A stretch of 60,568 nt of DNA from a virus (IMGVR_UViG_3300030060_006589:1-60568), one strand, 5' to 3'; shown: positions 23,659 through 51,400, numbered from the stretch's first letter. Notes: generated by a model not told the origin, from the letters alone. Made by a program: numbers and translations.

Positions 23659-25107
23659 TTAAAATTTTAATTTTCTACCTGGATTTAATTCTGTTTGTTT
23701 ATTTTCTGTTGGCATTTCAAAAAGTAAATTATTGTCTGACAACCAAGATATCCAATCCTCCTTTTTTTGCACACTAGCTGGAGCCATAGAAACTAAACTT
23801 CCTATTAAATTATTCATAATATCTTGAAAATGCTCTTTAGGCTTATTCTTATTAATAACTTCGTGGGCAATACCTAATATGTTAGTAGCTAAAGGTCCTA
23901 CCTTTTCCCCAGTATATAGTCCAGATAAAGTGTGTCTTAACGCATCTTCCTTGTCAAAATCACCAGGTCTTCCTTTTGTTTGCACGTCTGCTATAGATCT
24001 AGCTGTTTCAGAAGCCTTATCCATAGGTTTGTCTAGAAGGTTATCTATTGTATTTTCTAATTTATAAAGTTCTTCATACATTGTGTCACCCCTTTTATAC
24101 GTTTCACTGTCGTCTTCCACCAAGTTGTTACCCTCTTCCGTTTCTTTAGGGAGTGTAAAACCTCTATCCTCTTTAATCAAAGGCTCTTGCGTCTTACCAC
24201 CGTCTTCATAGTTTAGCAGTCCTCCAGTAGAAAACTCCCTCCCAATCGTATCATTAGAAGATCTAGATTCTAAAAACTTTCTGTATTCATTCTTCTTTCC
24301 CTCTATATCCTCCTCTGTAAAGTTAGGATTGCTATTGTAATTTCTATACCAGTAATCAACAACGGAGTCAATATCTGTATCAGGAAGTGGTTCGGGAGAA
24401 ATAGCGTATTTTATTCTCGCAGATAATGCAGATGCTATCTCGTCATTACCCTCTAGCAAACTTTCTAAATTACTTCTATCTGAGCTTATAGCTTCATACT
24501 TATTAAAGTAATCATTATAAACCTTGTCATACCTAGGAGATCTCTTTGTTACCAGATCACTTAAAAACCCATCATCTATAGACCAGTGTGAATTAGTATA
24601 GTCCCTGTTGTAAGCGTCCTCATTGGCTCCAAAGGAATTTTCTAAAAAGGCTGTAGCCTCCATTAAAACCCTTAGCTTATCTTTTTCTTCTGTAGCGTCC
24701 TTATCCACAACCCAGTTTATAGCGTCTTGAATACTCTTAGATCTTTTACCAGAAGGTACTGTGCCGCCCTTTTGAAACTTCTTAAGCATAGTAGCTCTAG
24801 CGGGGGGATATATAAGATCTAGAACTTCTTTTTCAATTATAATACCATCCTGAGCCTTTCTTGTATTATTCCTTTTTACATAACTACCTCTAGCGTTACG
24901 ATCCCCAGGAGTCCTGGTTTTATTACCCCTGTTCTTAGATGGGCTTTCTAATACTATAGATCCGTCAGACATATGAGAAACATCCTTACCGTCCCCATTA
25001 CCGTATGTACCCTTGTCCCTATTGATCTTGTTAAGCTTAGCACGCTTATTCTTAGCCTTAGGGCTGCTGTGAAACTTTTCGTATTCCTTTTTGTAATTTC
25101 TGGGCAT
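23659..25107 (-). CDS. Multi-domain protein with a basic, degenerate HNH-like N-terminus, possibly virion cargo
   Basis: Likely start ATG 25107 (MPRNYKKEY), with GDGKDVSH...ESPSKNRG. Segments are separated by KAQDG, FQKGG, FSTGG and YEDGG. Confidence 0.5.
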   Translation of the reverse strand: MPRNYKKEYEKFHSSPKAKNKRAKLNKINRDKGTYGNGDGKDVSHMSDGSIVLESPSKNRGNKTRTPGDRNARGSYVKRNNTRKAQDGIIIEKEVLDLIYPPARATMLKKFQKGGTVPSGKRSKSIQDAINWVVDKDATEEKDKLRVLMEATAFLENSFGANEDAYNRDYTNSHWSIDDGFLSDLVTKRSPRYDKVYNDYFNKYEAISSDRSNLESLLEGNDEIASALSARIKYAISPEPLPDTDIDSVVDYWYRNYNSNPNFTEEDIEGKKNEYRKFLESRSSNDTIGREFSTGGLLNYEDGGKTQEPLIKEDRGFTLPKETEEGNNLVEDDSETYKRGDTMYEELYKLENTIDNLLDKPMDKASETARSIADVQTKGRPGDFDKEDALRHTLSGLYTGEKVGPLATNILGIAHEVINKNKPKEHFQDIMNNLIGSLVSMAPASVQKKEDWISWLSDNNLLFEMPTENKQTELNPGRKLKF

Positions 25108-25111
25108 AGGG

Positions 25112-25119
25112 CAAATATA
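25112..25119 (-). promoter_or_regulatory. -7 element TATATTTG 4 nt before the ATG (likely leaderless transcript)
   Basis: Minus strand reads TATATTTG-ccct-ATG. Confidence 0.55.
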
Positions 25120-25635
25120 TAAAAAAAATGTGAGATAAGTGTAGGTTGGGGATAATAATATAATGTAACACACGTCCGAGCAATACCGAAACCGATATTT
25201 TTTAGGGGGGTAGGTCACTATATCTATGTATACACGATTTGAAACGTCGATTTTTGCAACTATTATCTAAATACATACATATAATATACACCACTACCCA
25301 CACCCCAAATAATAATATATATATATATACATACCCGAAGTCTGTTTGTGTTTTGTTTTGATTGTTCGACAAAGAATCCTAGCGATTGACTATGTTTTGT
25401 GTAACACGTTCAAGCAGGGGCTAACTCCCTTACCAATTTAATACATAATCTACCTAACATACTGAAATCAAATTTAAGCCACATTTTCTTACACCTAAGA
25501 AACTTTCTATCTATTGTGAAGCTCTACTATTAAAACTCTCTGTTTTTTCATTAGAATCAATCTACCTCTGATACCTCATATAGATATTTATTTACAACTT
25601 TTTTCCTCGAGAGAATGAAAATAATTTACATTTTA

Positions 25636-25668
25636 TTTGGAAGTTATTTGTTTTTTACTTTACATTTG
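25636..25668 (+). promoter_or_regulatory. Early promoter, Bacteroidota sigma70 consensus
   Basis: TTTG (25636-25639), 21 nt, TACATTTG (25661-25668), upstream of the first plus-strand early ORF. Confidence 0.75.
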
Positions 25669-25716
25669 TACCATACGATTGACACAAGGTTAATCACTAA
25701 CTAAAATTATACAACT

Positions 25717-25905
25717 ATGAAAAACTTAATGCAATATCTTGAACAAGAACTTGAAGAAACTTACAAATTTATTGGAGATGATTATCAAAAAATATCTAAC
25801 GAAACGGACTGTGATGAGGACATGATGAGAGCATATGATTTAGGTAGATTTGATACACTACAACGAATTAAACGATTATTAAATAACAAAAAAATTACTA
25901 ACTAA
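25717..25905 (+). CDS. Early hypothetical protein
   Basis: 62 aa, preceded by the repeated start motif. Confidence 0.7.
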   Translation: MKNLMQYLEQELEETYKFIGDDYQKISNETDCDEDMMRAYDLGRFDTLQRIKRLLNNKKITN

Positions 25906-25917
25906 AATTATACAACT

Positions 25918-26226
25918 ATGACTAATGAACAATTATTAAATAAGTATAGAAAGATACTTAATCAGATTGCTACAATAGGCGATACAGGTGGAACTCATAA
26001 CGATACTTGGCGATATAATTGGCTAGGAGCAAAAGAAGATTTTTATGACCTTGAAGATTCTATTGGAGAAGGTAATACTATTAATGGTATTCAAGTACAA
26101 GGTATAACAGATGGCTCTTGTATAAGTATAATGAAAAGATTAGATAAGGCACTAATTGTAGCAAAGACAATAAGCAAGATAGACAAACTTGAAGATATTC
26201 TAGATGAGAATATACAATACGGATAA
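25918..26226 (+). CDS. Early hypothetical protein
   Basis: 102 aa, preceded by the repeated start motif. Confidence 0.7.
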   Translation: MTNEQLLNKYRKILNQIATIGDTGGTHNDTWRYNWLGAKEDFYDLEDSIGEGNTINGIQVQGITDGSCISIMKRLDKALIVAKTISKIDKLEDILDENIQYG

Positions 26227-26255
26227 ACTAAATTACTAACTAAAATTATACAACT

Positions 26256-26408
26256 ATGAATGAATTAATCGCACAATTTGAAATGGAACAAGCTAACATG
26301 AGTACAAGTGTAAGCGACACAATCAACACTATCAACAAGGCTTTGACTCCGTTTAGCAATAAACAAGCACATATTGACATAATGAACAGTATTACTGACG
26401 AGGTCTAA
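26256..26408 (+). CDS. Early hypothetical protein (50 aa) whose 3' end overlaps hammerhead 1
   Basis: Not in the track. MNELIAQFEMEQANMSTSVSDTINTINKALTPFSNKQAHIDIMNSITDEV*, preceded by the 24-nt start repeat. Confidence 0.65.
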   Translation: MNELIAQFEMEQANMSTSVSDTINTINKALTPFSNKQAHIDIMNSITDEV

Positions 26409-26521
26409 TAGACCGAAACAAGTCCCACACTAACCCTCTGAGTATGATAATAAATACAGAGTATAAACAAACAAGAATTATCTGAAAGAAAGACAAAAAT
26501 AAAAGGGACTTGTCTAATACT
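26388..26521 (+). ncRNA. Type I hammerhead ribozyme with an extended stem III loop
   Basis: Stem I AGTATTA (26388-94)/TAATACT (26515-21), core CTGACGA (26395-401), stem II GGTC-taata-GACC, GAAA (26415-18), stem III CAAGTCCC (26419-26)/GGGACTTG (26505-12), GUC triplet with cut after C26514. Confidence 0.9.
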
Positions 26522-26541
26522 AATAACTAAAAACTATAACT

Positions 26542-26736
26542 ATGCACTTTTTAACAGATGAACAACAAGAACAAATCTTAATAATTAGCGACGTATTAAA
26601 CACCTCTAATGTATGGACAAAATTAGAACGAAGATTAGATATAGAACTAGATTGTAATAGCGATATATTTAGCGAGATTGAAGAATTTATCTTAAACAAA
26701 TTAGAGGAGATGCAAAGTATTACTGATGATTGCTAA
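26542..26736 (+). CDS. Early hypothetical protein whose 3' end overlaps hammerhead 2
   Basis: 64 aa ending MQSITDDC*, preceded by the start motif. Confidence 0.7.
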   Translation: MHFLTDEQQEQILIISDVLNTSNVWTKLERRLDIELDCNSDIFSEIEEFILNKLEEMQSITDDC

Positions 26737-26775
26737 TAGCATGAAATAGGGGACAATGTTCCCCTATATAATACT
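26716..26775 (+). ncRNA. Type I hammerhead ribozyme (compact)
   Basis: Stem I AGTATTA (26716-22)/TAATACT (26769-75), core CTGATGA (26723-29), stem II t-TGCT-aat-AGCA-t, GAAA (26743-46), stem III TAGGGGA/TCCCCTA, AUA triplet with cut after A26768. Confidence 0.85.
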
Positions 26776-26794
26776 AAAACTAAAGATTATAACT

Positions 26795-27001
26795 ATGAAA
26801 GCATACATATTAAAACTGAAATACCTATTTATTAATAACATTGGGAAACTAGATTTTCATGGGGAAGACTTTACAATACAACACATTGAGATGATGTTTA
26901 CAGATAGGTCTTTTCAAGATGTTATATTAAATAACTATTACAACGGAACGAGTGTACTAGAAACATACGAAGAACTAGCAGAAGGATTTATTACTAACTA
27001 A
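26795..27001 (+). CDS. Early hypothetical protein
   Basis: Start at ATG 26795 after ATTATAACT. The track's 26756 start lies inside the ribozyme. Confidence 0.65.
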   Translation: MKAYILKLKYLFINNIGKLDFHGEDFTIQHIEMMFTDRSFQDVILNNYYNGTSVLETYEELAEGFITN

Positions 27002-27012
27002 AAACTATAACT

Positions 27013-27285
27013 ATGAAAAGAACTAGGAAAAGAACTAGAGTAAAAAGTATAGAGGAACTAAAGACAATATGCTCAGATGATTACTTTCAAGATTTCTACA
27101 TATCTTTAGCCAACGGACTAGCGAGAAGTAGTAAAGAAATAAGATACAATAAAGAAGAAGACATATGGGAGATAATGAATGGTATTGATGGAATTTATTT
27201 AGAATACTCTACAACACAATTAGAATCCTATACTAATATAATCCAAGCAATAGATAACGGAAATTTAATCCACGAAAAATACTAA
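27013..27285 (+). CDS. Early hypothetical protein
   Basis: 90 aa, preceded by the start motif. Confidence 0.7.
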   Translation: MKRTRKRTRVKSIEELKTICSDDYFQDFYISLANGLARSSKEIRYNKEEDIWEIMNGIDGIYLEYSTTQLESYTNIIQAIDNGNLIHEKY

Positions 27286-27301
27286 CTAAATAACTATAAC
27301 T

Positions 27302-27610
27302 ATGAATACAATAAAACTAACAGACAGAGAACTAGAACTAATAAAAGATATGTTAATTGAAAAAATAAGATACAAAGGGGTACAGAAATTAATGGTCAAG
27401 ATCCAAAATCAACTACAACAACAACTTGTGTACAGGGACACCGATTATGGATATATATTTGAAACAGATGAACAACTTGTAAAGTATTTAAGAGGACTAA
27501 CACTAGATGATGAATACAACGATTGTACAGATGAATTTCTAATAGCTGAATCACTAGAACATAATTGGGTAAAGCAAATAAAACGAAGTGAATTAACAGA
27601 TACAGAATAA
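27302..27610 (+). CDS. Early hypothetical protein
   Basis: 102 aa, preceded by the start motif. Confidence 0.7.
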   Translation: MNTIKLTDRELELIKDMLIEKIRYKGVQKLMVKIQNQLQQQLVYRDTDYGYIFETDEQLVKYLRGLTLDDEYNDCTDEFLIAESLEHNWVKQIKRSELTDTE

Positions 27611-27626
27611 AATAAAGTGAAAATAA

Positions 27627-27658
27627 TTTGCATATATGAAATATAATTCGTATGTTTG
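27627..27658 (+). promoter_or_regulatory. Early promoter, Bacteroidota sigma70 consensus
   Basis: TTTG (27627-30), 20 nt, TATGTTTG (27651-58). Confidence 0.75.
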
Positions 27659-27681
27659 TAAAACAATCAACAACTAAAACT

Positions 27682-27918
27682 ATGAGAACAAGAATGAAAG
27701 TAGACTATTACCCGTGTATTGATGAATTTGCAGAAGAACTATATCATAAAAGATTAGATAATGCAATTCCTAAAAGAATAACAAAGAAATTTTGCTTAGA
27801 AATTCTGAAGTTTATGTCCTTTAAATATGTTGGACTTGGTGGTTGCGACTACCAAACTACTCACGATGAAGAAGATTATAAACTTGCAGATGAACTAATA
27901 GATAAATATAACTTATAA
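27682..27918 (+). CDS. Early hypothetical protein
   Basis: Likely start ATG 27682 (MRTRMK) after AACTAAAACT. The track's start lies within the promoter. Confidence 0.6.
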   Translation: MRTRMKVDYYPCIDEFAEELYHKRLDNAIPKRITKKFCLEILKFMSFKYVGLGGCDYQTTHDEEDYKLADELIDKYNL

Positions 27919-27930
27919 AACTAACTAACT

Positions 27931-28056
27931 ATGAAAAAGGATATAAATTTTTACAGAGAATGTCTAAGGATAGAATTAGCAAAACCTCTACACCAAACAG
28001 ATTTTATGTATATGAGACACTTAGATAATATAATAAATGAACTTAAAACTAAATAG
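27931..28056 (+). CDS. Small early protein (41 aa)
   Basis: Not in the track. MKKDINFYRECLRIELAKPLHQTDFMYMRHLDNIINELKTK*, after AACTAACTAACT. Confidence 0.55.
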   Translation: MKKDINFYRECLRIELAKPLHQTDFMYMRHLDNIINELKTK

Positions 28057-28058
28057 CT

Positions 28059-28295
28059 ATGACTAATAAAGAATTTACATGTTTCAACGAATGGAAGAAA
28101 CAACTAATAGAATACAAATCTAAAATACATTGGATAGATAAGAATGGAAAGAATCATTACTTATGGTCTAAGAAACCAACACTCGATAAAAATGGTAATG
28201 TAGATTATAGAAAACTATCTTACACTAACAAAGTAAACAGTATAAATACATATCGTTGGATATGTGAAAATAAACCTAAATTATTAATAAAATAG
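28059..28295 (+). CDS. Early hypothetical protein
   Basis: 78 aa basic ORF within the operon. Confidence 0.6.
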   Translation: MTNKEFTCFNEWKKQLIEYKSKIHWIDKNGKNHYLWSKKPTLDKNGNVDYRKLSYTNKVNSINTYRWICENKPKLLIK

Positions 28296-28364
28296 TAGTG
28301 TGTAGTTTTTAGTTTGATTTGGGGGGAGAACTTTCTCCCTCTTAATCATCAACTAACACCACTA
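28296..28364 (+). other. Long imperfect intergenic hairpin
   Basis: Nested pairings TAGTG/CACTA, TTAGTT/AACTAA, TGATT/AATCA and GGGAGA/TCTCCC. Confidence 0.55.
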
Positions 28365-28404
28365 TCATCAACTAAAACAATTACTAACTTAAAAATATAA
28401 AACT

Positions 28405-28665
28405 ATGAAAGAAAGAAAAAGTTTCGACTTATATAAATCAATTACAAGAAAAAGAGATATAGTAGATTACATAATGGACTACGAGTCTGGAAATATGTCC
28501 GATCTAGATATATTAAGAATGTTTAGCGAACTTATTAAAAATGGGATGGCTTGGAGTTTACAAGGACATTATGGAAGAACTGCAAATAGTCTAATTGAAA
28601 GCGAATACCTGTTAGCTAATGGAGATATTAATGAGGGGAAACTAGAAGATATAGGTATCCTTTGA
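28405..28665 (+). CDS. Conserved phage hypothetical protein
   Basis: IMDYESG...FSELIKNGMAWSLQGHYGRTANSLIE, a motif I recognise from diverse phages. Function unknown. Confidence 0.65.
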   Translation: MKERKSFDLYKSITRKRDIVDYIMDYESGNMSDLDILRMFSELIKNGMAWSLQGHYGRTANSLIESEYLLANGDINEGKLEDIGIL

Positions 28666-28831
28666 TACAAATAGCTACTAACATTAAAGAAGTAGGAGTA
28701 GAAGTAGAAGATAAGAGATATATATATTTTTATATAAAAATTATATAACTAACATAATTATCTACTAATAATGGTCGGAAGGTACAAGAAAAAAATGAGA
28801 ATGTCAAGTATTAACAAAAAAAAATAAAATT

Positions 28832-28933
28832 ATGGAAAATAAAAAAGAATTATACACAATAAATGGAATTAAAATATGGGCTTATTCAAAAGAAGATGCA
28901 AAGGAGAATTATGAAAGAATAATGCGAATATAA
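28832..28933 (+). CDS. Small early protein (33 aa)
   Basis: Not in the track. MENKKELYTINGIKIWAYSKEDAKENYERIMRI*, after TAAAATT. Confidence 0.5.
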   Translation: MENKKELYTINGIKIWAYSKEDAKENYERIMRI

Positions 28934-28945
28934 ATAAATAAAATT

Positions 28946-29071
28946 ATGAACAATTACGATAGAGAGCCATACCAAGATCAAGTGGATCAGACTCCATGTA
29001 AATTCTGTGGGGAAGATACTAACTATGACTTTTGTTCTACCTCATGTAGTAGAGCGTTCTTCAACGATTGA
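28946..29071 (+). CDS. Small Cys4 zinc-finger protein (41 aa)
   Basis: Not in the track. Contains CKFCGEDTNYDFCSTSC. Confidence 0.6.
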   Translation: MNNYDREPYQDQVDQTPCKFCGEDTNYDFCSTSCSRAFFND

Positions 29072-29103
29072 TTTGCATAAGTGAAAATTATTTACTATGT
29101 TAG
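29072..29103 (+). promoter_or_regulatory. Promoter, near-consensus
   Basis: TTTG (29072-75), 20 nt, TATGTTAG (29096-29103). Confidence 0.6.
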
Positions 29104-29120
29104 CAACAACTTATTAAATA

Positions 29121-29203
29121 GAAATGGGGAGTGTGAAAGGTAGCGTTACTAGTGAAAAGTGTGAATAAAACCTAACGCATCACACCCTACACTCCCTTAT
29201 TTC
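29121..29203 (+). ncRNA. Candidate structured leader RNA/ncRNA with pseudoknot potential
   Basis: Closing stem GAAATGGGGAGTGT/ACACTCCCTTATTTC encloses crossing pairings GCGTTA/TAACGC and GTGTGA/TCACAC. Confidence 0.55.
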
Positions 29204-29233
29204 TTTAAACTAAAACTAATTAAAACTAAAATT

Positions 29234-29422
29234 ATGGACAAGAAAAAAACTGCTTATCAAGATATAGTGGACAAGATTCACTACTATATAAACAACCCAC
29301 ACAAAAACCCTTATGATGTATTTGATTACGAGGGAGATGAGGTTATACTAGACTCAAATGGAGATCGGGTTGCTGGTAATAACTTAAATAAAAAGAATTG
29401 GTATTATAATAAAAACAAATAA
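29234..29422 (+). CDS. Hypothetical protein
   Basis: 62 aa after TAAAACTAAAATT. Confidence 0.6.
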   Translation: MDKKKTAYQDIVDKIHYYINNPHKNPYDVFDYEGDEVILDSNGDRVAGNNLNKKNWYYNKNK

Positions 29423-29426
29423 AATT

Positions 29427-29636
29427 ATGAAACAAACACCATACGATTTAAACGATTTAGATTACGCAAATTCTCAACCAAATGAGAATGAATTAACAAT
29501 AAAATCTTCAACAAACACATTGTTGGGTAAGCAATTAGCTTGGTTTAATCACTTTGTTGACTATGTCAATCAAGTAGATCCAAACATATATAACGAAGCA
29601 TGTGAATACTCTGATAATGCAGAGGAAAGTGTATAA
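29427..29636 (+). CDS. Hypothetical protein
   Basis: 69 aa ORF within the operon. Confidence 0.6.
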   Translation: MKQTPYDLNDLDYANSQPNENELTIKSSTNTLLGKQLAWFNHFVDYVNQVDPNIYNEACEYSDNAEESV

Positions 29637-29653
29637 CAATTAAAACTAAAATT

Positions 29654-29797
29654 ATGTCAGATAAAACAAATCATATATACGAAGATACATTTAAAGTAGA
29701 TATTAAGTATACATACGATAGGAAACACAACAAGGTTTACGATATAGATTCTGCTGTTAAAGAATTTAATACACTAATAAAAAAATTAATGAAATAG
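29654..29797 (+). CDS. Small hypothetical protein (47 aa)
   Basis: Not in the track. MSDKTNHIYEDTFKVDIKYTYDRKHNKVYDIDSAVKEFNTLIKKLMK*. Confidence 0.55.
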   Translation: MSDKTNHIYEDTFKVDIKYTYDRKHNKVYDIDSAVKEFNTLIKKLMK

Positions 29798-29801
29798 AAT
29801 T

Positions 29802-29951
29802 ATGGATATATTTATAACAATAACAATGTCTTTTATAGCTTTGTATTTATGTTTATTTCTAACTATATTTAGTTTCGTTTTTATATTAGGAATATATACG
29901 GAGATTGTACAACCTATCTTAAGACTCATTAAAAAATTACATCATGGATAG
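29802..29951 (+). CDS. Small single-pass membrane protein (49 aa)
   Basis: Not in the track. MDIFITITMSFIALYLCLFLTIFSFVFILGIY is strongly hydrophobic. Confidence 0.5.
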   Translation: MDIFITITMSFIALYLCLFLTIFSFVFILGIYTEIVQPILRLIKKLHHG

Positions 29952-30273
29952 TATAGTTTTTAGAAAAACACATAACTTAAATTTTGCTATAGAAAAAATA
30001 GGTAAGAAATCTAAATCTTGTAACGATTATGTGCAAGAAAAGAAATTACAAAGAATAATAAAGCAAAGTTTAAAAGATCAAGAAACAATAAAAGATCTGA
30101 TCGGTGTAAAAGGTTTTGGCAAAACAGAAGAATCAGTAATTGAGAACATAAAAGTAGTTATTCAAGATAAGATACTAGCATTGAACGGTAAAGAGATCAA
30201 ACATTACATTGAACAATTACAGAAGGTGCCAGTCTCATATTGTATTAAACAGATTAGAAAAAAATACTCATAA
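29944..30273 (+). CDS. Hypothetical basic protein
   Basis: 109 aa. GVKGFGKT could be an HhH-like turn. Confidence 0.55.
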   Translation: MDSIVFRKTHNLNFAIEKIGKKSKSCNDYVQEKKLQRIIKQSLKDQETIKDLIGVKGFGKTEESVIENIKVVIQDKILALNGKEIKHYIEQLQKVPVSYCIKQIRKKYS

Positions 30274-32635: not shown

Positions 32636-33136
32636 ATGTATTTAAAAATATCTGAACATACGTCTATTGATAGCAATTCTGTTGCTGGGTTTTCTTGCGA
32701 AGGAAGAATACTTTATATAATAAGAAAAAACCAAGACAAGCCTTTAGATATTATATATGATACAGAAGAAGAATGTAGTAAAATATTTCAAAACCTAAAT
32801 AATCATTTTAAAAGTAAAGATCTAGTCACACCACTATCATCAGTTACAAAAACAAAAGAGGACAGAGAAGTAAAATTAGCTATGTTTAAAGCCTTTTGGA
32901 ATCTGTATAACAAAAAGACTGGTATGCAGAAATGTCAGGATAAATTTCTTAAGTATGGGTTAGCTACAATGCAGACCATAATAGACGCTGTACCCACATA
33001 TGTAAAAGAAACTCCTGATCCAAAATTTAGAAAGCACCCACTTACTTGGTTGAATGGAGAATATTGGAAAGATGAAAAAGTAAAAGAGGAAGAGAAAAAG
33101 AAACAAGAATTTAATGTAAACGATTTATTTAAATGA
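32636..33136 (+). CDS. Replication initiator/replisome-organiser-like protein
   Basis: C-terminal FKAFWNLYNKK...KFRKHPLTWLNGEYWKDE, directly upstream of the helicase. Confidence 0.6.
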   Translation: MYLKISEHTSIDSNSVAGFSCEGRILYIIRKNQDKPLDIIYDTEEECSKIFQNLNNHFKSKDLVTPLSSVTKTKEDREVKLAMFKAFWNLYNKKTGMQKCQDKFLKYGLATMQTIIDAVPTYVKETPDPKFRKHPLTWLNGEYWKDEKVKEEEKKKQEFNVNDLFK

Positions 33137-34923
33137 GCCTAAATAATGATAGAATACGTATTAATAAAACACAAGGGGAGGTAAGACATATATGTTATAA
33201 TTGTTCTGGAGATCGCAAGAAATCTAATGAGAAATGTCTAGCTATAAATGCGGAAACTGGAGCGTACTTGTGTCATCACTGCGGAGACAGTGGTATTATT
33301 AATCAATATAAAACATACGAAAAACGAAAGGATATAGAATATTCTAGACCTGAAATGCACAATTCTACTGGATTGTCAGATGAGATGGTAGACTGGTTTA
33401 GATCAAGAGGTATATCTCAAAAGGTTTTAGTTAAGAATAAAATAACACAAAAAAAGGAATATATGCCACAAGTGTCTTCAAATAGAAACGTAATATGCTT
33501 TAATTACTTTAGGGATGGAGAACTTGTGAATGTAAAATACAGGGACGGAGAAAAGAATTTTAAGCAACATAAAGACGCTGAGAAAATATTCTACGGTCTA
33601 GATGATATAAAAGATCACAAGGATGTATATATAGTAGAAGGAGAAATGGATAAGCTATCTTTAAACGAAATAGGAATAGAGAACTGTGTATCTGTACCTG
33701 ATGGGGCACCTAATCCTGGTACTAAAAACTATGATAATAAATTCTCTTATCTAGATAACTGCTGGGAATATTTTCAAAATATGGAGAAGATATATATATG
33801 TTCAGATAATGATGCAAACGGAAGAGTTTTGCTAGAAGAACTTAGCAGAAGAATAGGAAGAGAAAGATGTTTTATAGTTAAGTTTCCTGATGAAATAAAA
33901 GATGCTAATCAAATGCTTGTAGATCAAGGTGTATTAGCTTTAGAAAAAATATTAAAAGACGCTGAACCGTATCCAGTAGATGGTATTTTTACTGTTAAGT
34001 CTGAGCAAGACTACATGATAGATGTATTCAACAACGGTAAAAAGAAAGGACTAACTACAGGATATCAAGTATTAGACAATCACTATACCCTCAGAACTTC
34101 AGAACTAGATGTGTGGACAGGTATTCCAGGCTCAGGTAAAACAATGATGGCTATGCAGATAATGCTAAATGCCTCTGTTTTATATGGGTGGAAGTGGGGA
34201 ATATTTTCTCCAGAAAACTACCCAGTGGGGGACCTGTTCGACACTCTAGCTGAAATGTATATAGGCAACACATCTGATGTAGATGTAAATGATAGAATGA
34301 GTATATATGAATACGAGAAAGCTATAGAATTTTTAAACGATCATTTCTTTGCTATATATCCTGAAGATGATTTTAGTCTTGATAATATATTGTCTAAATT
34401 TAAACATTTAGTGTTAAGACACGGTATAAAAGGTTGTTTACTGGACCCATTTAATCAGCTGGATCATAAGTTTGCTGGTAAAGATGAAACAACATACATA
34501 GGTGAATGCCTTACTCAGATAAGAAGGTTTGAGCAGGTTAATGATCTTAAGTTTATTATTATAGCACACCCAAGAAAGATGGACAGAGATGATCAAGGTG
34601 GTTATAAAAAACCTACAGCGTATGACATTAGTGGTAGTCAGAACTGGTTTAATAAAGCGGACAATGTTATATGTATACATAGAGATGATGCTATGGATAT
34701 AAACAATACTTCAGTAGCCTTTAGTGTGCAAAAAGTTAAGTTTCAAAAGCTTGTGGGTGTTCCAGGAGAAGAGTCTTTAAAATATGATAGAAGGTCTGGT
34801 AGATATTTAGATCACCAAATGAGTTGCCCGCTAGATGGTGTTAGCCAAACACATAGTTTATGGAGGGAGAAAACTACATACTCACCAGAACAGGAATGGA
34901 TAACTAGAAAAGATTTAGAATGA
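33133..34923 (+). CDS. Primase-helicase (T7 gp4/Twinkle-like)
   Basis: Zn finger CYNC...CHHCG, TOPRIM IVEGEMDKLS and DNDANG, Walker A TGIPGSGKT, LLDPFNQL, IAHPRK, DISGS. Confidence 0.93.
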   Translation: MSLNNDRIRINKTQGEVRHICYNCSGDRKKSNEKCLAINAETGAYLCHHCGDSGIINQYKTYEKRKDIEYSRPEMHNSTGLSDEMVDWFRSRGISQKVLVKNKITQKKEYMPQVSSNRNVICFNYFRDGELVNVKYRDGEKNFKQHKDAEKIFYGLDDIKDHKDVYIVEGEMDKLSLNEIGIENCVSVPDGAPNPGTKNYDNKFSYLDNCWEYFQNMEKIYICSDNDANGRVLLEELSRRIGRERCFIVKFPDEIKDANQMLVDQGVLALEKILKDAEPYPVDGIFTVKSEQDYMIDVFNNGKKKGLTTGYQVLDNHYTLRTSELDVWTGIPGSGKTMMAMQIMLNASVLYGWKWGIFSPENYPVGDLFDTLAEMYIGNTSDVDVNDRMSIYEYEKAIEFLNDHFFAIYPEDDFSLDNILSKFKHLVLRHGIKGCLLDPFNQLDHKFAGKDETTYIGECLTQIRRFEQVNDLKFIIIAHPRKMDRDDQGGYKKPTAYDISGSQNWFNKADNVICIHRDDAMDINNTSVAFSVQKVKFQKLVGVPGEESLKYDRRSGRYLDHQMSCPLDGVSQTHSLWREKTTYSPEQEWITRKDLE

Positions 34924-42499: not shown

Positions 42500-45400
42500 T
42501 TAATTATTACCTCTAATACGTTTTAATTTTTCTTCATCAGCTGCTGACCACATTCTCATCATATACAGAACTTCTGGGTTTTCCATTATATTTTCTATAT
42601 ATTCAGGATCTTCTTTTTCATATCTTTTTCCATTACTATCTCTACCTTCCAATGTGTGTCTCAAGTCTGTCTGCTGCTGTTCATTTAATCCTGTTTTACC
42701 ATTTTTTAACATCCACATCATATAAGCTGCTGTCATTGGGTTTCCTTGTTTATAATCTGTAATAGCTTGCTGCACATCAGAACTAGCTGTTGAGTAATTC
42801 CAATTCATAATAACCATTCTATTTATTCTCTTTTTTATTTCTCCCCTATTCCACATCAGGTCATCTATTACCTCATCTTCTCCAAGTCTACCACGCAGCT
42901 CCTCCTCTACCTTATTTATTATTTCGTTTGATCTAGAAAGGAACATTTCCGCAGGGTCAAGATATCCATCCCCATCTAAATCTGAAAGACGCATAGTTTT
43001 ACCCTCAGAATCTATCCATTCATTTGTGTCAGGATCTTGTCTTACATTCATTTCTTTCATAACAGCATCATAAGAAAGTTTTAAATTGGCTTGGAACCTC
43101 TCTTCTGTTTTTCTTACATGATCCGCTTCAGATTGTAGTTTTGACTTTTTGTTTCTAAGAAGGTCAATGTCCCCAACATATCTTTTTGTTGCTGGACCTA
43201 AAAAGTCATTCATAAATAAATTCATTTGATTACCATACTTCTCCTTTTCAGTGTCACTTAATCCTCCTTGACTAGCCACATACATATGGTTAATAGCGGC
43301 ATACCAGGGGTTTCTATCCATATTAGTAAATAAAGATCCTAAAGCTGACTTTGTAGTTGTAACTGGAATACCACCCTCAGCTAATCCTATTTTGTCAAAC
43401 CCTTTAGAAATATCTTTTAAAATTCTATCTTCATATGAATCAGACAACCCTCTGTATTGATTGTAACCATTTTCTGCTTCAAATTTATCTGACCAAACAG
43501 GTTTATTGTAGAAAGCATCATAGTTCCATAAAACTTTTGCAGTTGCATTTAAAAGAGGATTTGAAGCCATTAAATCTCTAGGATTACCAGCACCAGTAGG
43601 TATAGCTTTCTGTAGTATTCTACCGTAAGAATTTTTATCCTCACCTCTACCCCAAGGAGTATATGAGAAAACATCTTTTCCTAAATTTCTAAAATCTGAC
43701 CCCGTTACATGTTTAAACATCATGTCTTCAGTTATAGCTCTAAACACATTCATTCTAGCATCACTAGGTATTTTAAAGTATCTAGGAGTTATAATTTTAT
43801 TGTCAGATAACTGTTCTTTTATTTCAGCTATTCTAGCATCTCTTTCTGGACCTACCTCCATGCTTTTAGCTATTCTAAGTTGATCTTGTAAAGCTGTTTC
43901 TTTTTCTTGACTAATTATATCTGTAACCTTACCAGGTAGTATTACGCAGTGGTAATTCTCTAAGTCATAATCATTTATATGATTAATAAAATATCTTCTA
44001 TTTTCGTATAACTTTTGTCTTATTTCCTTTTCTGACTCAGTATCACCATTAGCTATAGCTTGATTTAAATTCTCTTGTAATCTCTCTTCTTCATCTTCAT
44101 CTAATATATCAAAATACTGTAAGTTATAAGCCATAAGACCAGCTCCAAATGTAAGAGCCCATTGTGCTGTATCCCAAGCAAATTGAGCGGGGTTTTCAGA
44201 AACATATCTAACACTCTTGTCTAACACCTGTGACGCAGCATTAAGATAAGCAAAACCCATAGCGTCAACAGCCTTGATAGCAGTTCCTCCATTATTAAAG
44301 TTAGCGTAATCAACAGCGTTAGCTACAGCTCTTTTCTTGATAGCTATAAGATCTTCTCCTGTAGGCTCTTGACCATCATTCTTATCTTTGTATTCTTGTA
44401 CATATTTTTTAGTCCATCTTTTGTAATTAGCTAATCTACCTGTCATCTCAGATGTTGAGTTTGGAGCAGAAATAAATCTTTTAAATATATCCCAACCACT
44501 CTTAGTGTTAGGATTTACATAAGGAGCCTCATCTCCATACAAACTATTCACCTGTTCTCTTGCAGCTTGTTGTCTAGCGTCAAACTCAGGGAGTTTATTT
44601 GCGGGATCTGCCATTATTTCTCTAACTCTCTTTTCTAATTGAACCTCATCAATAGCTGTATCTTCTACATAATCCATCAAACCGTATCTCGTCATAAACT
44701 CTAAAGATCCTCCAAGCATCTTATACTCTTGACTAAGTGGACCGTTTGTTGCTGCATCTATCATAACAGACAGCCAGTCTTTTCCTGCTACCGCAAATTT
44801 TGTAGCTAAAGTTGATCCATACCACTTACCATTATAAGTGTCTGTAAATATAACTTGTTGAGCGAAGTCGTAGAAAATATTAGCAATAAAAAATGCAGGA
44901 GCACCAACACCAGTAGCAAACACCTTAAGTATACTTCCAGCACGCCTAAGAGGACTAAGAGCTTTTCTTGCCCACCCAGATGTAGGAATCCCGTCTCTAG
45001 GATTAGCAAATAAGCTTTTATAAGCAGCATTTTTCATAGCAAATCTTATATTCTTTCCATTCTCACTGTAGCTCATTTCAATGTGACCATCTGCAACTTG
45101 CTCACCATCTTTTAATATGTAGCCAATATCTTCACCTTTAAGCTTTAGTCCATTTATATATTCAAAACCCTGACTAGCTATAGCAGATATCATATTGTAT
45201 ATACCTTTTCTAACTTCATTTTCAGCTCTTAATTTAGCTCCTATAGCTAATGTATTCTGAAGAAGCTTAACAGGATCCATATATAAAACTTGATCACTAC
45301 CCTGCTTTAAGGTTTTTATAGGAGACTGCATATGATCTCCCTTCTCAGATCTTCCTGACCTTCTTTGACTAATTATATCTCTCTCAGCGAATATTACATG

Positions 45401-48400
45401 GTCAACAAATTTTCTAGGATTATATTTTAAATTTTTAAGCTCATTATAAGTTGCTTCATCTATAAGACCAGCTTCAAAGTTTCTTTTTAACTCATTACGA
45501 TACTCTTCAAAAAGTTTGTCAGTAGTTTCTCTTATTATATTAAATCTATCGCCCTGTTCTTCCTTCATTGAGTCTATCATACCTTGTGCAAGCTCTTTGT
45601 TCATCATCATGTAACCTTCACCTTTAGGGTTTTTAGTTTCAGGATGTTTTAGTCTCCAAGGGAACTTTTTCTTCTTAGTAGTTGGGTCTAGCACTGGTTT
45701 AATTCCAGGTTTCATTCTTTCACTAATGTCTTTACCATCCTTATCTTTAGTTAAATATTCTAAATAATAACCTGAACCATCCTCATTTTTCTTAATATTA
45801 ATATTAGAGTTGTCTTTATATATGTTATCTAATTCACTCTCAGCTTGTTTTATTGCTTCTTTTATAGCAGATTTCTGATCTTTTTTAGCTTTACCAAGTT
45901 TTTTAGATAAAGAATTTAAGTTTTTAATAATAGCATCAGCTGCTGACTTTTGAGCATCATATAAATTATCAATCTCTATTATTCTCTCTAATGTAGATAG
46001 TTGACCCACTAGTTTTATTTGAGCTGAAGATAAAGTTCCCCATATTCTTTTATTAGCCTGGTCTATAAATTCTTTAGCTGTTCCTGGAACTGTTAACCAT
46101 AAAGTTATAGAAGCGAGAGCGTTAGAAGCTGTCTCTCCAAGGTTTAAATCCTTGCCAATGTTTCTGATAGATCTTTTTATTCTATACTTACTATCTACTG
46201 TAAGCTCTTTTAAAGCAACAAACTTATCATCTAAAGTTTTTCTAAAGTTCTTTAGTCTTCCAAAGAAATTATCTTTACCTCTTGAGAATGCCGCATCCTG
46301 ATCTTTCTGTAAATTAGATAGAGCTTCAGCATAATCTTGTAGAGTCCAATCCTTAGTGTCAACTTCTGAGTTTGAAGAATCTTCTATTTGATCCTGTTCT
46401 TCTCTAGTTTTTTCTAAGTGTTCATCTAGTTCATCTAATTTAGATGCTTCTTCTTCTGTCAGCTCAGTTTCTCCAGCCATATTGGATTGTTTAGGATTGA
46501 ATAACCCTTCTTGAGTTGATAAAAAGTCTCTAAATAATTCTCTTATCTCAGCTTCTTGATTGGGGACAAATTTATCTCCCTCAGCCTGAGCTTTCTTTAA
46601 GTAATCTATAGCTGCATCTATAGCTGTAGCAACACTAGAAGTGGCTCTAAGAGTAAGAGAAGCTGTTTTTAAGGCAGCCCTAATAATAGGTACAGACATA
46701 AATGGATCTGCATAAGCATTACCACCTAAGTCTTTATATATCTGATCTAGTTTATCTGCAAAGTCTGTTAAGATTTGAAAACGCTGAACGCTTCTGCTAG
46801 AATACTCATCTCCTGTTCTGAGATCTGAGATGTCCTGGGCGTTGTCCCCGCTATTAATAGCTCTTTGCCTTCTGGCAAGCTCTCTATTGATGTCTGTGTC
46901 AAACGACTTTTCTTGTCTTGTAGTTGTTTCGTATTCCCCATTTGTAAAAACTTTTGTATTAATATAACCAAATTCTACGGTATTAAAAATATCATCACCG
47001 TATTTTTCTTGTATTTCTCTTATTGCTTTATTTACTCCTTCAGTCCATTTAGAACCAAGGTTATCTATATTTTCCATCGTTAAACCCTCACCCATTGGCT
47101 CCATAAGATACTCAGGAACAAATTGCATTGACATGCCTACAACCTCTGCTTGTTGATTATAGTTAAGAGTTAAACCCTCCACGCCATTAGGACCAAAATG
47201 CTCATTAGCAAACTCTCTAGCTTCAGTAAGAGTCATAGGCTCAGAAAATTCTATTCTTCTAAAAGGTCTAGCATTAGGATCTTGCTCTGTTGTAACCTTA
47301 GATATAAATACAGATTCTTGCTCATTATTGATAGCTGTAGTTAACAACTCATCAACTAAAGGAGATATATCTGTTCCAGCATCAACTAGCATTTCTAAGT
47401 TTATAGTATCTTCTGTTTGATTCATATATATACCTTCTGACTGATATGGTCTACCCATAGCACCTAACTGCTTAACTATAGCGTCTAAGTTCTGAAGTGC
47501 TTGATCCATTCTAATAGACCCTTGCATAGTTTCAGCTATGACAGCAGCAATTTCTTCATCGGTAGCATTTCTTTCTAAAGCCTTTTGAACAGCTCTAGCC
47601 GCAGCACTATATATTCTGTTTTTCTGTTCTGGACTTGTATTCCCTATAAATGTACTAGCACCTATCATAACTCTATCTGTTATGTCAGCAGACCTAACAG
47701 CATTTTCCATAGTTGACTGCTCTTTAGCTCTCACATCCCCAGTAAATCCAGACTCGTTATATATTTGTTTTTCTATAAACCACATAGAAGCCTGTAGATC
47801 GTCAGGGTTTAAGTTTAACTTCTTAGCAGCTATAGCGTATACACTTTGTGCAAAAGCAAAATCTTTATTACCTACTGTTGTTTCTTGAGACTGTCTTCTT
47901 CTAAATGGTACAAACCCTCCTTGAGAATATAATATTCTTCTCATATTTCTAGCAGCCCAAACATCAATAGTAGCACTTCTATCTCTTAAAGATAAGTTAT
48001 TGTAAAACTGTCCTGTTTTATTAGCTGGATTATTAGATAACCAATTACCATATAAAACCCTAACAATACCTGAAGTAACTACTGGAAGACCGAATGATTT
48101 CCCGTTTTTCTTTTTTATAGCAGCTACAACATCTTGATCAGAAGAAGCCTGTCTTATAAGTTCTTTAGCTTTAAATAAAGCTTTTTTGCCTGTACCAAAA
48201 ACACCTTGATCATACTGAGCCATTATATCTTTAACTTTTGCATCGTACACTTCTAAAGACTCGTCAAACTTACCCTCTGAGTAAGATCTTAAAACTTCAG
48301 TAGACTTTCTAAAGATAACCTGAGGCGGTGCCTGTGGAGATGTAACACCTAGCAACTCAAAGAATATTGGTGCATTTCCACCAAACTTCTGTTGTATTAA

Positions 48401-51400
48401 GTCTTTTGTTTTACTGTACCACCCTGTAGCCTTTTCTAAATCTATTTTAGAACTATTAACGTTAAAGTCTTGAATAAGTAAATTTGAAGCTAATTCTATC
48501 TTTTGTTGCTCTGACATACCCGCAAATATAGGTGCTGCTCCAAAATTAAAAGAAAGAGTTTTTATTACAGGTTTGCCATTCTTCAACACCACAAAACCTC
48601 CATCAAATAATATTTGCATAGGATCTGACAAGCTAGGGTCGTTTTTCATGTCAACATTATTATGCTGATCTATTTTTCTCTGTAAGTTATCTATTTGTTT
48701 AAGTTCATTTTTAGTATAATTACCTCTAACAACTTTAGGGTTAACTCTTTGTTTAGCTATTTTATATATCTCTTTAGCTTCTATCTCATTATACTGATCT
48801 GGATACCTTTCTTGTAAAGCTTCAAAGAATTTAGCTCCAGTCACTTTATTAGTTATGGCTTCCTCAGCAAACTTAACAACCCCATCATTATTAAATAAGA
48901 ATCTTTTTTTAAGAGACTCTATACTTTCATCTTTTACTTCATCTAATCCCTTTATAGACTCAACAGCATTATTGAAAGCTACAGAAATAGCCTGTCCCGC
49001 TTTTAAGCTTGCTTTTAGGGTTTTTAAGAAGGTTTCCCACGCCACTGGTCCTAGACCCATGGTGATATCCATATATAGGTTTTTGCCTTTATTTCGGTTT
49101 ATTCTATCTAATTCTGAGTCAATACCTCTAATTGTTCTATCTACAAGAGTCTCTGTGTTTTCTGCTGATTTTATATTTGGATCAAGATCAGATTCATGTG
49201 GGTTTGTAGATGCGTTTATTAAGTCTATTACACCAGCTAAATCTTCTGTTATCTGATCGGTAGAAGCCATTAGATCCATAACTGGAAGACCCTGCATAGA
49301 TACTTTTAAAGTTTTTATAGCTTCCTTTTTTGTTCTTCCTAATAATGTGCCAGAAGTTGATTCAACCCATTCTTGTTTTCCGTATTTCTTAGATAAAGAA
49401 AAAGGTCTTCCATTTACAGTTCCTTCGTATAATTTAGTAGATCTATTGTATTTAAATGGAGTGTCTTGAACAATTTCAGCTCCCGCTTCTGTATCTACCT
49501 CTGCTTTTGCTGGTTGTTGGAATACAAACTCATCAGGAAGTAATCCTATTTTTTGATCTGCAAAAGGTCTATCTTGAGGTCTTACATAATCAGGATCCCC
49601 CTTCTGAGGAATACTACCGTCCTCTCTTCTTAAACTTTGATTAAAATTAACCCATGAGTTTTGACCTCTAGTTTCTGTTGTCATAGCTCTCCTAGCGTCA
49701 TGACTAAACATTCTAGAATGATTAAGCCAAGCATTTTCTTCCCCCTTAACACCAAAACCATTACCTAATTCTGTATGACCAAAAAAGTCGTGAACAGCTC
49801 TAAATAAATCGTTAACTAATAAAGGTTCTCCATTAACATCAGTAAATTCAGTTCCTTGTAATAAAGGGTTTTCTTCTCTCATTTGATCTGATATCTGCTC
49901 CTGACCAAACCCAGCCTCTGTTCCAAATATATATAAATGCTTATTATCTCTAACATCCTTTATCATTTCATCGCTATTAGCATACGGTTCTCCTTTACCC
50001 TTATACACTTCTATAGTATACCCAGCATTAATAAGAGACTGATACTGCATAGTTGTTTCATTAGCTAGAGCTGTGTAAGCTTTTTTAACTTTTGGATCGT
50101 TAGGATTATTTTCCATAGACTCATAAGCGTCAGCTATATTTTTAGAATTTTGCTCATTAATCTCAGTAACTGGCTGAGGATCAGAATGCTGTATACCTAG
50201 TTGAGGGGAATTAGTATTTATATAGTTTCTTGTTATTGAAGAAGTTTCTGGATTAGGATCATTAAACAATCTATTACCAGGATTTACAGAGCTTGTATTA
50301 CCAGCAGAACTTCTTACTGACTCATCTTCAAATAAAGTTAACTGTCTACCACCAGAAGCTGGCATAGGACTTGTTATTCTTGAAATTAAATCACTTAACT
50401 CTTGATCATTATTAATAGATAAATTTACTTTACCAGATTTTATATCTTCCACCACAGAAGGGTTACTCAACATGCTTAATACTTCATTTTTAGATATAGA
50501 TGTTCCAAAGTCTGCATCAGCCCCACTAATAACATATAAAGGTTTTTTGTCACGTTCATCATCTTTAACTGTAGGCAAACCTCCAGGACCTTCTCCAATA
50601 TTAAAAGCAGGACCTCCAGGAGTATCTCCTCCGTCATCATCACCGCCATCTAAAGCACTTAAGTGATCTGGAGTTTCACTTACCATGTTATCCCAATCTT
50701 CATCCCCCCATAATCTTAATTGTTCTCCTTGAGGCGACTTTTTGTAATCATCCATAACACCTAAGAAGTCTTGAACTAATTTAGTATCTTCAGGATTTAA
50801 ACTACCTGAGTCTAACATATCTTGAAAGTTCTGCTCTATACTGTTAGCTGTCAATAATGTAAAACCACTAGATAACCCTACACAAATAATAGCTGTAGTC
50901 ATTAACTTATTTATTCTCTCGTCTTTTGATTGACCAACAGTCTGCATTAAAGCTTCCTCCCAGTTAAAACCCATATTAGTTAAGTTCTCAACAAACTCAC
51001 CTGAATACTCAGCTAATAACTCAGCACCACCACCCGCAAGTATTCTTGGAGGTAGAGTAGTGATTTTAACTCCTGGTTTACCAAAGTTTCTATATAATGT
51101 TAATAACCCTCTAGTTACAGGAGTTCTTTTAAATAAAGAGTTTACAATTTGTTCTGTTGCTCCCTCAGCAGCACCCATTCTCCATGTAGCCTGATCACCT
51201 GATGTCATCTCAAAAGCTACAGCTCCACGAACTACATTCTCACTAAAATTCCACCAAAATTTACCTACATCTGTAGTCTTAGCAGCAACCATAACATTCT
51301 TAATCATAGGCACCTTGGTAAGAGTTTTTAACCCAGCACCAGCTATAGGCATAGTAGCAATCATCTCAATCATAATAGGAAGTGTAGTACCCACACCTTG

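Follow-up and report, generated by a model that had tools for sequence, protein, structure and literature searches.

Two complete hammerhead motifs of type I are located at consecutive gene junctions in the early region of IMGVR_UViG_3300030060_006589, a viral record that is complete at 60,568 bases and is called, at its full length, the window throughout this text. Both reside on the coding (sense) strand of adjoining, co-oriented early-type genes, and just one open reading frame (ORF) of 64 amino acids (aa) lies between them. We consider it likely that these elements, hammerhead 1 (HH1) and hammerhead 2 (HH2), act as co-transcriptional self-cleaving ribozymes that separate the early messages, giving a structured, cyclic-phosphate 3′ end on one side of each cut and a 5′-OH leader of about 26 nucleotides (nt) on the other. 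The two motifs and the genes that they adjoin are listed below, all on the plus strand, with the cut sites positioned from the motif.

26256-26408: 50-aa early ORF (ORF50), whose end, SITDEV-stop, overlies HH1 stem I, the CUGACGA core and the 5′ strand of stem II
26388-26521: HH1, type I, with the full consensus core, a G10.1-C11.1 pair, and stems of 7, 5 and 9 base pairs (bp)
26388-26394 with 26515-26521: HH1 stem I, AGUAUUA paired with UAAUACU
26395-26401: HH1 core, CUGACGA
26402-26414: HH1 stem II, GGUCU-AAU-AGACC, followed by GAAA at 26415-26418
26418-26426 with 26505-26513: HH1 stem III, 9 bp
26427-26504: A-rich insert of 78 nt, located distally within HH1 stem III
26514/26515: predicted HH1 cut site, 3′ of position H17, which is C26514
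26542-26736: 64-aa early ORF between the two ribozymes, whose end, SITDDC-stop, overlies HH2
26716-26775: HH2, type I, with a consensus core, a U10.1-U11.1 mismatch, and stems of 7, 4 (plus the mismatch) and 8 bp
26716-26722 with 26769-26775: HH2 stem I, identical in sequence to HH1 stem I
26723-26729: HH2 core, CUGAUGA
26730-26742: HH2 stem II, U-UGCU-AAU-AGCA-U, followed by GAAA at 26743-26746
26746-26753 with 26760-26767: HH2 stem III, 8 bp
26768/26769: predicted HH2 cut site, 3′ of position H17, which is A26768
26795-27001: early ORF that comes next, 68 aa when read from ATG 26795, with the junction consensus ahead of this ATG

Both motifs carry the expected core nucleotides C3-U4-G5-A6-N7-G8-A9 and G12-A13-A14, the A15.1-U16.1 pair, and a nucleotide other than G at H17. 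Structurally, each forms three helices, with stems II and III closed by loops and stem I open. HH1 has all three of the Watson-Crick pairs that adjoin the core (10.1-11.1, 1.1-2.1 and 15.1-16.1), and HH2 lacks the first of these, where it presents U-U. With covariance model R1, HH1 scores 57.8 bits and HH2 scores 63.2 bits. When the sequence and the ORF list were rechecked, everything that an earlier note on this DNA had described in the sequence was found as stated, with one correction, including the shared stem I, the cores, cut sites and coordinates, the SITDEV and SITDDC ends that overlie stem I and the core, and the TAA stop codons within the stem II hairpins. The same holds for the next ATG codons, located 27 nt (26542) and 26 nt (26795) past the cut sites, and for the 254-nt fragment between the two predicted cuts (26515-26768). 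The correction concerns the note's statement that stems II and III vary in sequence and stay paired, since HH2 stem II loses one pair, to the U-U at 10.1/11.1. An alternative ATG at 26756 falls inside the loop of HH2 stem III.

A custom scanner for the full type I motif, which requires perfect helices, was run on both strands of the window and reported exactly two sites, HH1 and HH2. Among 300 dinucleotide-preserving shuffles, three contained one loose match, none contained two, and none contained a match of equal quality. The full motif is expected by chance about 0.01 times per window, versus two occurrences observed. In addition, folding by minimum free energy gives the hammerhead three-way junction for each of the two stretches, at z-scores of −3.78 and −3.84. 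It is therefore extremely unlikely that the sites are chance matches, or hairpins acting at the DNA level as a promoter or terminator, even though the window shows no enrichment of the bare core word (CUGANGA...GAAA), with eight occurrences against 5.2 expected, and no Rfam model reaches its threshold, as described below. Such a reading would also have to accommodate covariation in three stems and a core conserved in all 28 family members. A terminator role for stem III was rejected because no terminator-like site is present in 25100-29000, a span that includes both stem III elements.

Type I hammerheads also occur at early-gene junctions of relatives found among viral and metagenome contigs. 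A scan of the contig collection with a loose pattern returned 115 loci, most of them chance matches, and five full hammerheads in four loci, one of which (L100) is a complete relative of 62,996 bases. Using the neighbouring 482-aa protein as the query recovered 29 loci, including two close relatives (L116 and L117) that hold three hammerheads. A covariance model built from nine copies revealed no additional copies in the window or in the whole records of five relatives. As the fairest of these tests, the core and stem II were then held fixed in a pattern that leaves stems I and III free. This pattern has 37 matches (one in the window, seven in viral contigs and 29 in metagenome contigs), a count that includes several contigs occurring in both collections. 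Perfect stems I and III accompany 33 of the 37, and two more are cut by contig ends. The remaining two, in L167 (near 8550, reverse strand) and at L178:951-976, have a perfect core and stem II and no partner strands for stem I or III within 140 nt; both may be relics, or else their inserts may be very long.

The family comprises 28 distinct members, which present eight versions of stem I, 12 of stem II and 17 of stem III around an invariant core. In an alignment of 13 sequences to the model, 95.4% of the cells are paired, and nine of the 15 pairs exhibit changes on both sides. None of 500 shuffles reaches the observed level of covariation, and slid controls pair at 23-41%. Selection on structure had been proposed from the two window copies, and the intact stems I and III in the pattern matches, along with compensatory changes in all three stems, show such selection. 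Several relatives carry more than one copy: there are three hammerheads in L163 and two each in L117, L164, L165 and L169. Those of L163 (78-136, 426-482 and 713-773, reverse strand) fall within 700 nt, each beside one small gene. Similar type I hammerheads are also present at gene junctions (L010:303-377, L010:1319-1395 and L057:11734-11808) in an unrelated, more G+C-rich phage lineage that has clear Shine-Dalgarno sites.

Some observations weigh against the assignment of HH1 and HH2 as functional ribozymes. A search of the whole window with Rfam models at their gathering thresholds, a check that the earlier note had proposed for the hammerhead models, gave no matches. When the E-value limit was relaxed to E ≤ 10 for 26200-26900, the only hammerhead reported was a partial match to Hammerhead_3 (15.6 bits against a cut-off of 48.5, E 3.1). 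Two small RNA (sRNA) matches from the same run were set aside as implausible. Compact relatives score 24-26 bits with Hammerhead_HH9 (RF02275; cut-off 52), and one relative (L165) scores 38.6 bits with the RAGATH-1 hammerhead (RF03152; cut-off 56.3) in an alignment from which the hairpin stem of that model is deleted. The covariation counts lean towards structure, given that the alignment is fitted to the model and that some members were picked by the scanner with its demand for perfect helices; the pattern test with fixed core and stem II is free of this bias for stems I and III. The 78-nt insert in HH1 stem III could slow folding. In most family members, loop II is conserved as a U-N-N-Y-A-like pentaloop or triloop, and no partner was identified in stem I for the tertiary contact with this loop that makes cleavage fast at low Mg2+. 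Finally, HH2 is the sole member among the 28 with a U10.1-U11.1 mismatch and the sole member in which H17 is A. Regarding the insert, HH1 orthologues in L164 and L168 carry a near-identical copy despite a differing stem II.

The peculiarities of HH2 raise the possibility that only HH1 works, and that HH2 is a slow or decaying copy. Under that alternative there would be no discrete 254-nt unit, and the second junction would lack a tandem cassette. A 2011 survey of bacterial hammerheads, in the parts considered here, rejected hits mispaired beside the core and reported low activity for phage hammerheads with core variants (PMC3088659). Furthermore, the U is not dictated by coding, since a G at position 10.1 would encode Glu instead of Asp. 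On the other hand, the remainder of HH2 is perfect, including the core, the 7-bp stem I and the 8-bp stem III, and a U-U pair can be stacked within a helix. The stretch from 26165 to 27046 is letter-identical in contigs of two other studies (X2, from 26126, and X3), and thus the U-U is not an assembly error. Another contig (L183, described below) keeps the U-U version and differs by one nucleotide in stem III in a way that leaves the pairing intact. On balance, we regard an inactive or failing HH2 as possible and somewhat unlikely. HH1 is expected to be fully active, and HH2 may be slower because of the U-U pair beside its core.

The junctions themselves share a leader. At least nine early ATG codons in the window have ahead of them one strongly conserved consensus, (A)TTACTAACTAAAA-N-TATAACTATG, which lacks a Shine-Dalgarno sequence and may be a translation signal, a processing site or a promoter. 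Its copies, and the junctions most relevant here, are as follows.

25696-25716, 25897-25917, 26235-26255, 26526-26541, 26773-26794, 26993-27012, 27281-27301, 28383-28404 and others, in the window: copies of the leader
26515-26541, plus strand: leader of the 64-aa ORF, 27 nt, of which the first 7 nt are the 3′ strand of HH1 stem I and the remainder is the junction consensus
26769-26794, plus strand: leader of the 68-aa ORF, 26 nt, composed of the 3′ strand of HH2 stem I and the junction consensus
26229-26255, plus strand: ribozyme-free junction with the same leader consensus

The leader opens, at every hammerhead junction, with the 3′ strand of stem I (UAAUACU or UAUUACU). For this reason, the ribozyme is a module of at least about 45 nt placed ahead of a standard leader, with the start of the leader serving as the substrate strand. 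The distance from the cut site to the first downstream ATG is 20-38 nt in 30 distinct contexts and 24-28 nt in 21 of these, where the ATG is simply the nearest one and is not validated as a start codon. More than 20 different genes are found downstream of the ribozyme. The positions of the hammerheads vary among close relatives. For example, the junction homologous to 26229-26255, which follows a gene ending in YG-stop, holds a hammerhead in L117 and in a variant present in sequencing run X4, and L164 carries hammerheads on both sides of its ORF50 homologue.

Cutting of a polycistronic early RNA is the natural reading of this arrangement, because the motifs sit at junctions of co-oriented early genes and no terminator-like site interrupts the region. 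As a long early transcript emerges, each ribozyme would fold, with stem I forming between the strand that is just past, or overlaps, the end of the upstream gene and the opening 7 nt of the leader that follows, and with stems II and III forming as local hairpins. The RNA would then cut itself 3′ of position 17. Presumably, the upstream message would thereby acquire a structured 3′ end terminating in a 2′,3′-cyclic phosphate, and the downstream message would start at a 5′-OH, followed by a uniform leader about 26 nt long. Hammerhead cleavage leaves 2′,3′-cyclic phosphate and 5′-OH ends. The sequences show the motif, how it is conserved and how it covaries; cleavage in the window, and an effect of it on message stability or translation, we infer from this chemistry, which is established for hammerheads as a class, and from what has been published on how clustered prophage hammerheads behave.

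In the window, the coding sequence runs into both ribozymes. The overlap of ORF50 with HH1 amounts to its last six codons and the stop codon, and in both upstream ORFs the TAA consists of the final U of the stem II 5′ strand and the first two loop bases. The earlier note had treated this overlap as a designed feature, and the wider family does not bear this out. Among 30 contexts, the upstream stop codon lies between 8 nt before and 2 nt inside stem I in 23, whereas stop codons in loop II occur in four (the two in the window, L010 and L057); the remaining three are ambiguous. L183 is a further case of a loop II stop, outside the 30 contexts, with a SITDDC-stop end in the same +18 arrangement. 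In the L010/L057 lineage, one upstream ORF likewise ends in loop II, as SITDEE-stop. The ORF50 homologues of L100 and L164 end ahead of the ribozyme and have dissimilar C-terminal tails. Relatives that keep the peptide ends and lose the stems and core would have spoken against a structural role; these two show the opposite, keeping the ribozyme with different peptide ends. The homologues of the 64-aa ORF in L117 and L164 end in NEDTN-stop and have no ribozyme behind them. At plain junctions, many early ORFs end in ITN-stop by reading the ATT ACT AAC TAA of the leader.

This layout could mean, as the earlier note had suggested, that translation gates cleavage, such that stem I, the core and stem II are opened by a ribosome that has reached the last codons, and that cutting is confined to RNA that is untranslated or already translated. 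The two upstream ORFs in the window do stop in loop II, as does that of L183, and the L010/L057 lineage has arrived at this position independently. Against this stand the minority status of the loop II stop codons and the homologues of the same gene that stop ahead of the ribozyme with tails not conserved as protein. The conserved motif also offers a simpler origin for the overlap. It reads as S-I-T-D-E/D-x-stop in one frame, and a second frame is closed by the UGA of the core, so an ORF that loses its own stop codon will usually end inside the motif, and the layout is obtained for free. Gating is therefore distinctly unlikely as an account of these elements; it is not a family trait, and is possible in the window.

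The preferred reading, in which the ribozymes separate messages, leaves the RNA that carries the 64-aa ORF (26515-26768) with a 5′-OH and a 2′,3′-cyclic phosphate, and the earlier note had suggested that this RNA might circularise. At the level of the ribozyme class, the end chemistry is compatible with ligation. Because HH1 and HH2 have identical stem I sequences, the excised ends could rebuild a hybrid hammerhead, and all three hammerheads of L163 likewise share one stem I (AGUUAUA/UAUAACU). However, the paired hammerheads of L117, L164, L165 and L169 have stem I versions that differ within each pair. Stem I is a weak, A/U-rich helix of 7 bp with one G-C pair, which would favour release of the product over ligation. 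Searches for RtcB (PF01139) and RNA_ligase (PF09414) across the whole 60,568-base record found neither family, with other ligase and kinase families outside the search; a host ligase could still act. According to the portion of the 2011 survey considered here, its authors looked for spliced or circular RNA arising from tandem prophage hammerheads and detected none (PMC3088659). Circularisation of the 254-nt RNA is thus very unlikely.

Repeated ribozyme and leader sequences mark the boundaries of gene cassettes in this phage group, as indicated by a hybrid ribozyme in one relative and by rearranged joints in a sequencing run. The hybrid is the following feature.

12945-13003 of L183: hybrid hammerhead directly behind the ORF50 homologue, with an HH1-type core (CUGACGA) and HH2-type stems II and III

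L183 lacks the 64-aa gene, and a different gene is located downstream of the hybrid ribozyme. This looks like the product of recombination between two ribozymes that removed the gene between them. Run X4, which contains a co-occurring related strain, has joints in the early region at 26225>26388, 26282>26714 and 26700>27916, some of which, such as 26225>26388, coincide with ribozyme borders. In sequence terms, these joints indicate a mosaic early-gene content in the population.

Such findings permit the view that hammerheads are kept mainly as portable junction modules for the gain, loss and exchange of cassettes, with cleavage being secondary. The loss of the 64-aa gene at the hybrid, the X4 joints, the variable positions among close relatives and the diversity of downstream genes all fit this view. 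Nevertheless, strict conservation of the core and compensatory changes in the stems reflect selection on the RNA fold that goes beyond repeat identity, and recombination at the repeats is possibly a by-product. We judge it unlikely that exchange is the principal reason for their retention. A broader proposal, held with similarly low confidence, is that the hammerhead and the shared leader of about 26 nt constitute a portable 'punctuation module' for early genes that combines cassette exchange with ribosome competition. Because the substrate strand of the ribozyme is the first 7 nt of a universal leader, an insertion of about 45 nt could make any junction self-cutting. If the proposal is true, repeated modules may drive the exchange of cassettes between phages, as the L183 hybrid with its lost gene would exemplify. 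Moreover, in lineages whose upstream ORF extends into the ribozyme, folding may face competition from terminating ribosomes, so that the cut fraction of the message would indicate the translation load of the upstream gene.

We consider the arrangement to belong to a known kind, namely hammerheads located between the genes of phages or prophages. The earlier note knew of no characterised system like this one, which was mistaken, as clusters of prophage hammerheads that flank single genes were published in 2011 (PMC3088659). In the parts of that work considered here, Perreault et al. describe hundreds of bacterial hammerheads near prophage genes and clusters that flank individual genes of varying identity, and report cleavage of polycistronic prophage constructs of about 2 kb in vitro and of one arrangement in E. 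coli (PMC3088659). The authors proposed that hammerheads process long phage transcripts into gene-length messenger RNAs (mRNAs), and also raised the possibility of spliced or circular products (PMC3088659). Both ideas, transcript cutting and the circle or splice, are therefore common to the published clusters and the window (PMC3088659). A 2019 review, again in the part considered, regards the purpose of bacterial and phage hammerheads as still largely unresolved (PMC6765202). Searches of the literature on the processing of phage early genes, and on hammerheads in crAss-like phages or those of Flavobacterium or Cellulophaga, found only these two articles, and the supplementary maps of the 2011 survey, which lie outside this scope, could hold closer parallels such as ORF overlaps.

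The prophages of Clostridium scindens, Azorhizobium caulinodans and Agrobacterium tumefaciens resemble the window in having several close hammerheads on the same strand around single genes or short blocks (PMC3088659); in the window there are two, 254 nt apart, around one 64-aa ORF. The 2011 cases are integrated prophages, whereas the window holds the early operon of a lytic-looking marine phage. They also differ from the present family in its compact type I form and near-invariant AGUAWUA stem I, whose 3′ strand is the start of a common early-gene leader, and from the window in its upstream ORFs that stop inside the ribozyme. The HHphage element of haloviruses HF1 and HF2 is comparable in that a transcript 5′ end was mapped near its cleavage site, and one halovirus hammerhead is located 13 nt upstream of the start codon of an early gene (PMC3088659). 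In contrast to HH1 and HH2, HHphage is described there as a structural variant that needs high Mg2+ and heads a polycistronic transcript instead of being intergenic (PMC3088659).

RF03152 and RF02275, the best-scoring Rfam models on relatives of the window copies, resemble those relatives in core, in type I topology and in having a short stem I. The 5′ accessory hairpin of RF03152 is absent here, and both models miss the window copies even at E ≤ 10. The Rfam hammerhead models in their present form thus miss the compact type I form of these marine phages. Zeta viruses and betaviroid-like RNAs offer another likeness, in that ORF start or stop codons overlap their hammerheads; these are small circular RNA genomes with type III hammerheads and rolling-circle replication, in contrast to the six-codon tail overlap in the mRNA of a double-stranded DNA phage, so far as the portion of that report considered here allows the comparison (10.64898/2026.09.16.752053). 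Judged from the sequences, the points that the window and its relatives add are the shared leader as substrate strand, the steady spacing from cut to start codon, the series of junctions with and without the ribozyme, the L183 hybrid, and the failure of Rfam models to recognize this form.

The phage group provides a natural series for the role of hammerheads, since the same early genes can be found both with a ribozyme at a given junction and lacking one. The series also offers one to three ribozymes per genome, a fixed distance from cut to start, the core-adjacent variant of HH2, and cases of translation into the ribozyme. Contrasts among these could serve to test cleavage as the determinant of message stability, of translation or of gene dosage.

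On the plus strand of the window, from 25,700 to about 36,000, a series of small ORFs is followed by replication genes. Two features of this region bear on its source and transcription.

25679-25707, plus strand: promoter candidate, the best sigma-70-like match, TTGACA-17-TAAAAT, matching 11 of 12 positions, directly 5′ of the first early ORF
33133-34923, plus strand: primase-helicase, one of the replication genes

The best relatives of the primase-helicase belong to phages of Riemerella, Tenacibaculum, Cellulophaga and Flavobacterium (32-41% identity), and the sequencing runs that contain window DNA are marine metagenomes. On both grounds, the source is probably a marine phage, with a host presumably in the Bacteroidota. 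A nucleotide search of 24000-30000 against a collection of phage records gave no match. The promoter match is a candidate for the start of the early transcript, limited by the number of promoter-like sites in the region, which is not higher than in shuffles; the same TTGACA-17-TAAAAT is also present in L117. A long early transcript agrees with this strong match ahead of the first early gene and with the lack of terminator-like sites in 25100-29000. The −10 element of the candidate overlaps the leader motif. A sigma-70-like promoter would be odd for a Bacteroidota host, whose promoter consensus differs. Elsewhere in the window, an ORF of 3902 aa (42500-54208, minus strand) has only weak family matches (DUF7178 and phrog_3170) and may encode a giant virion protein.

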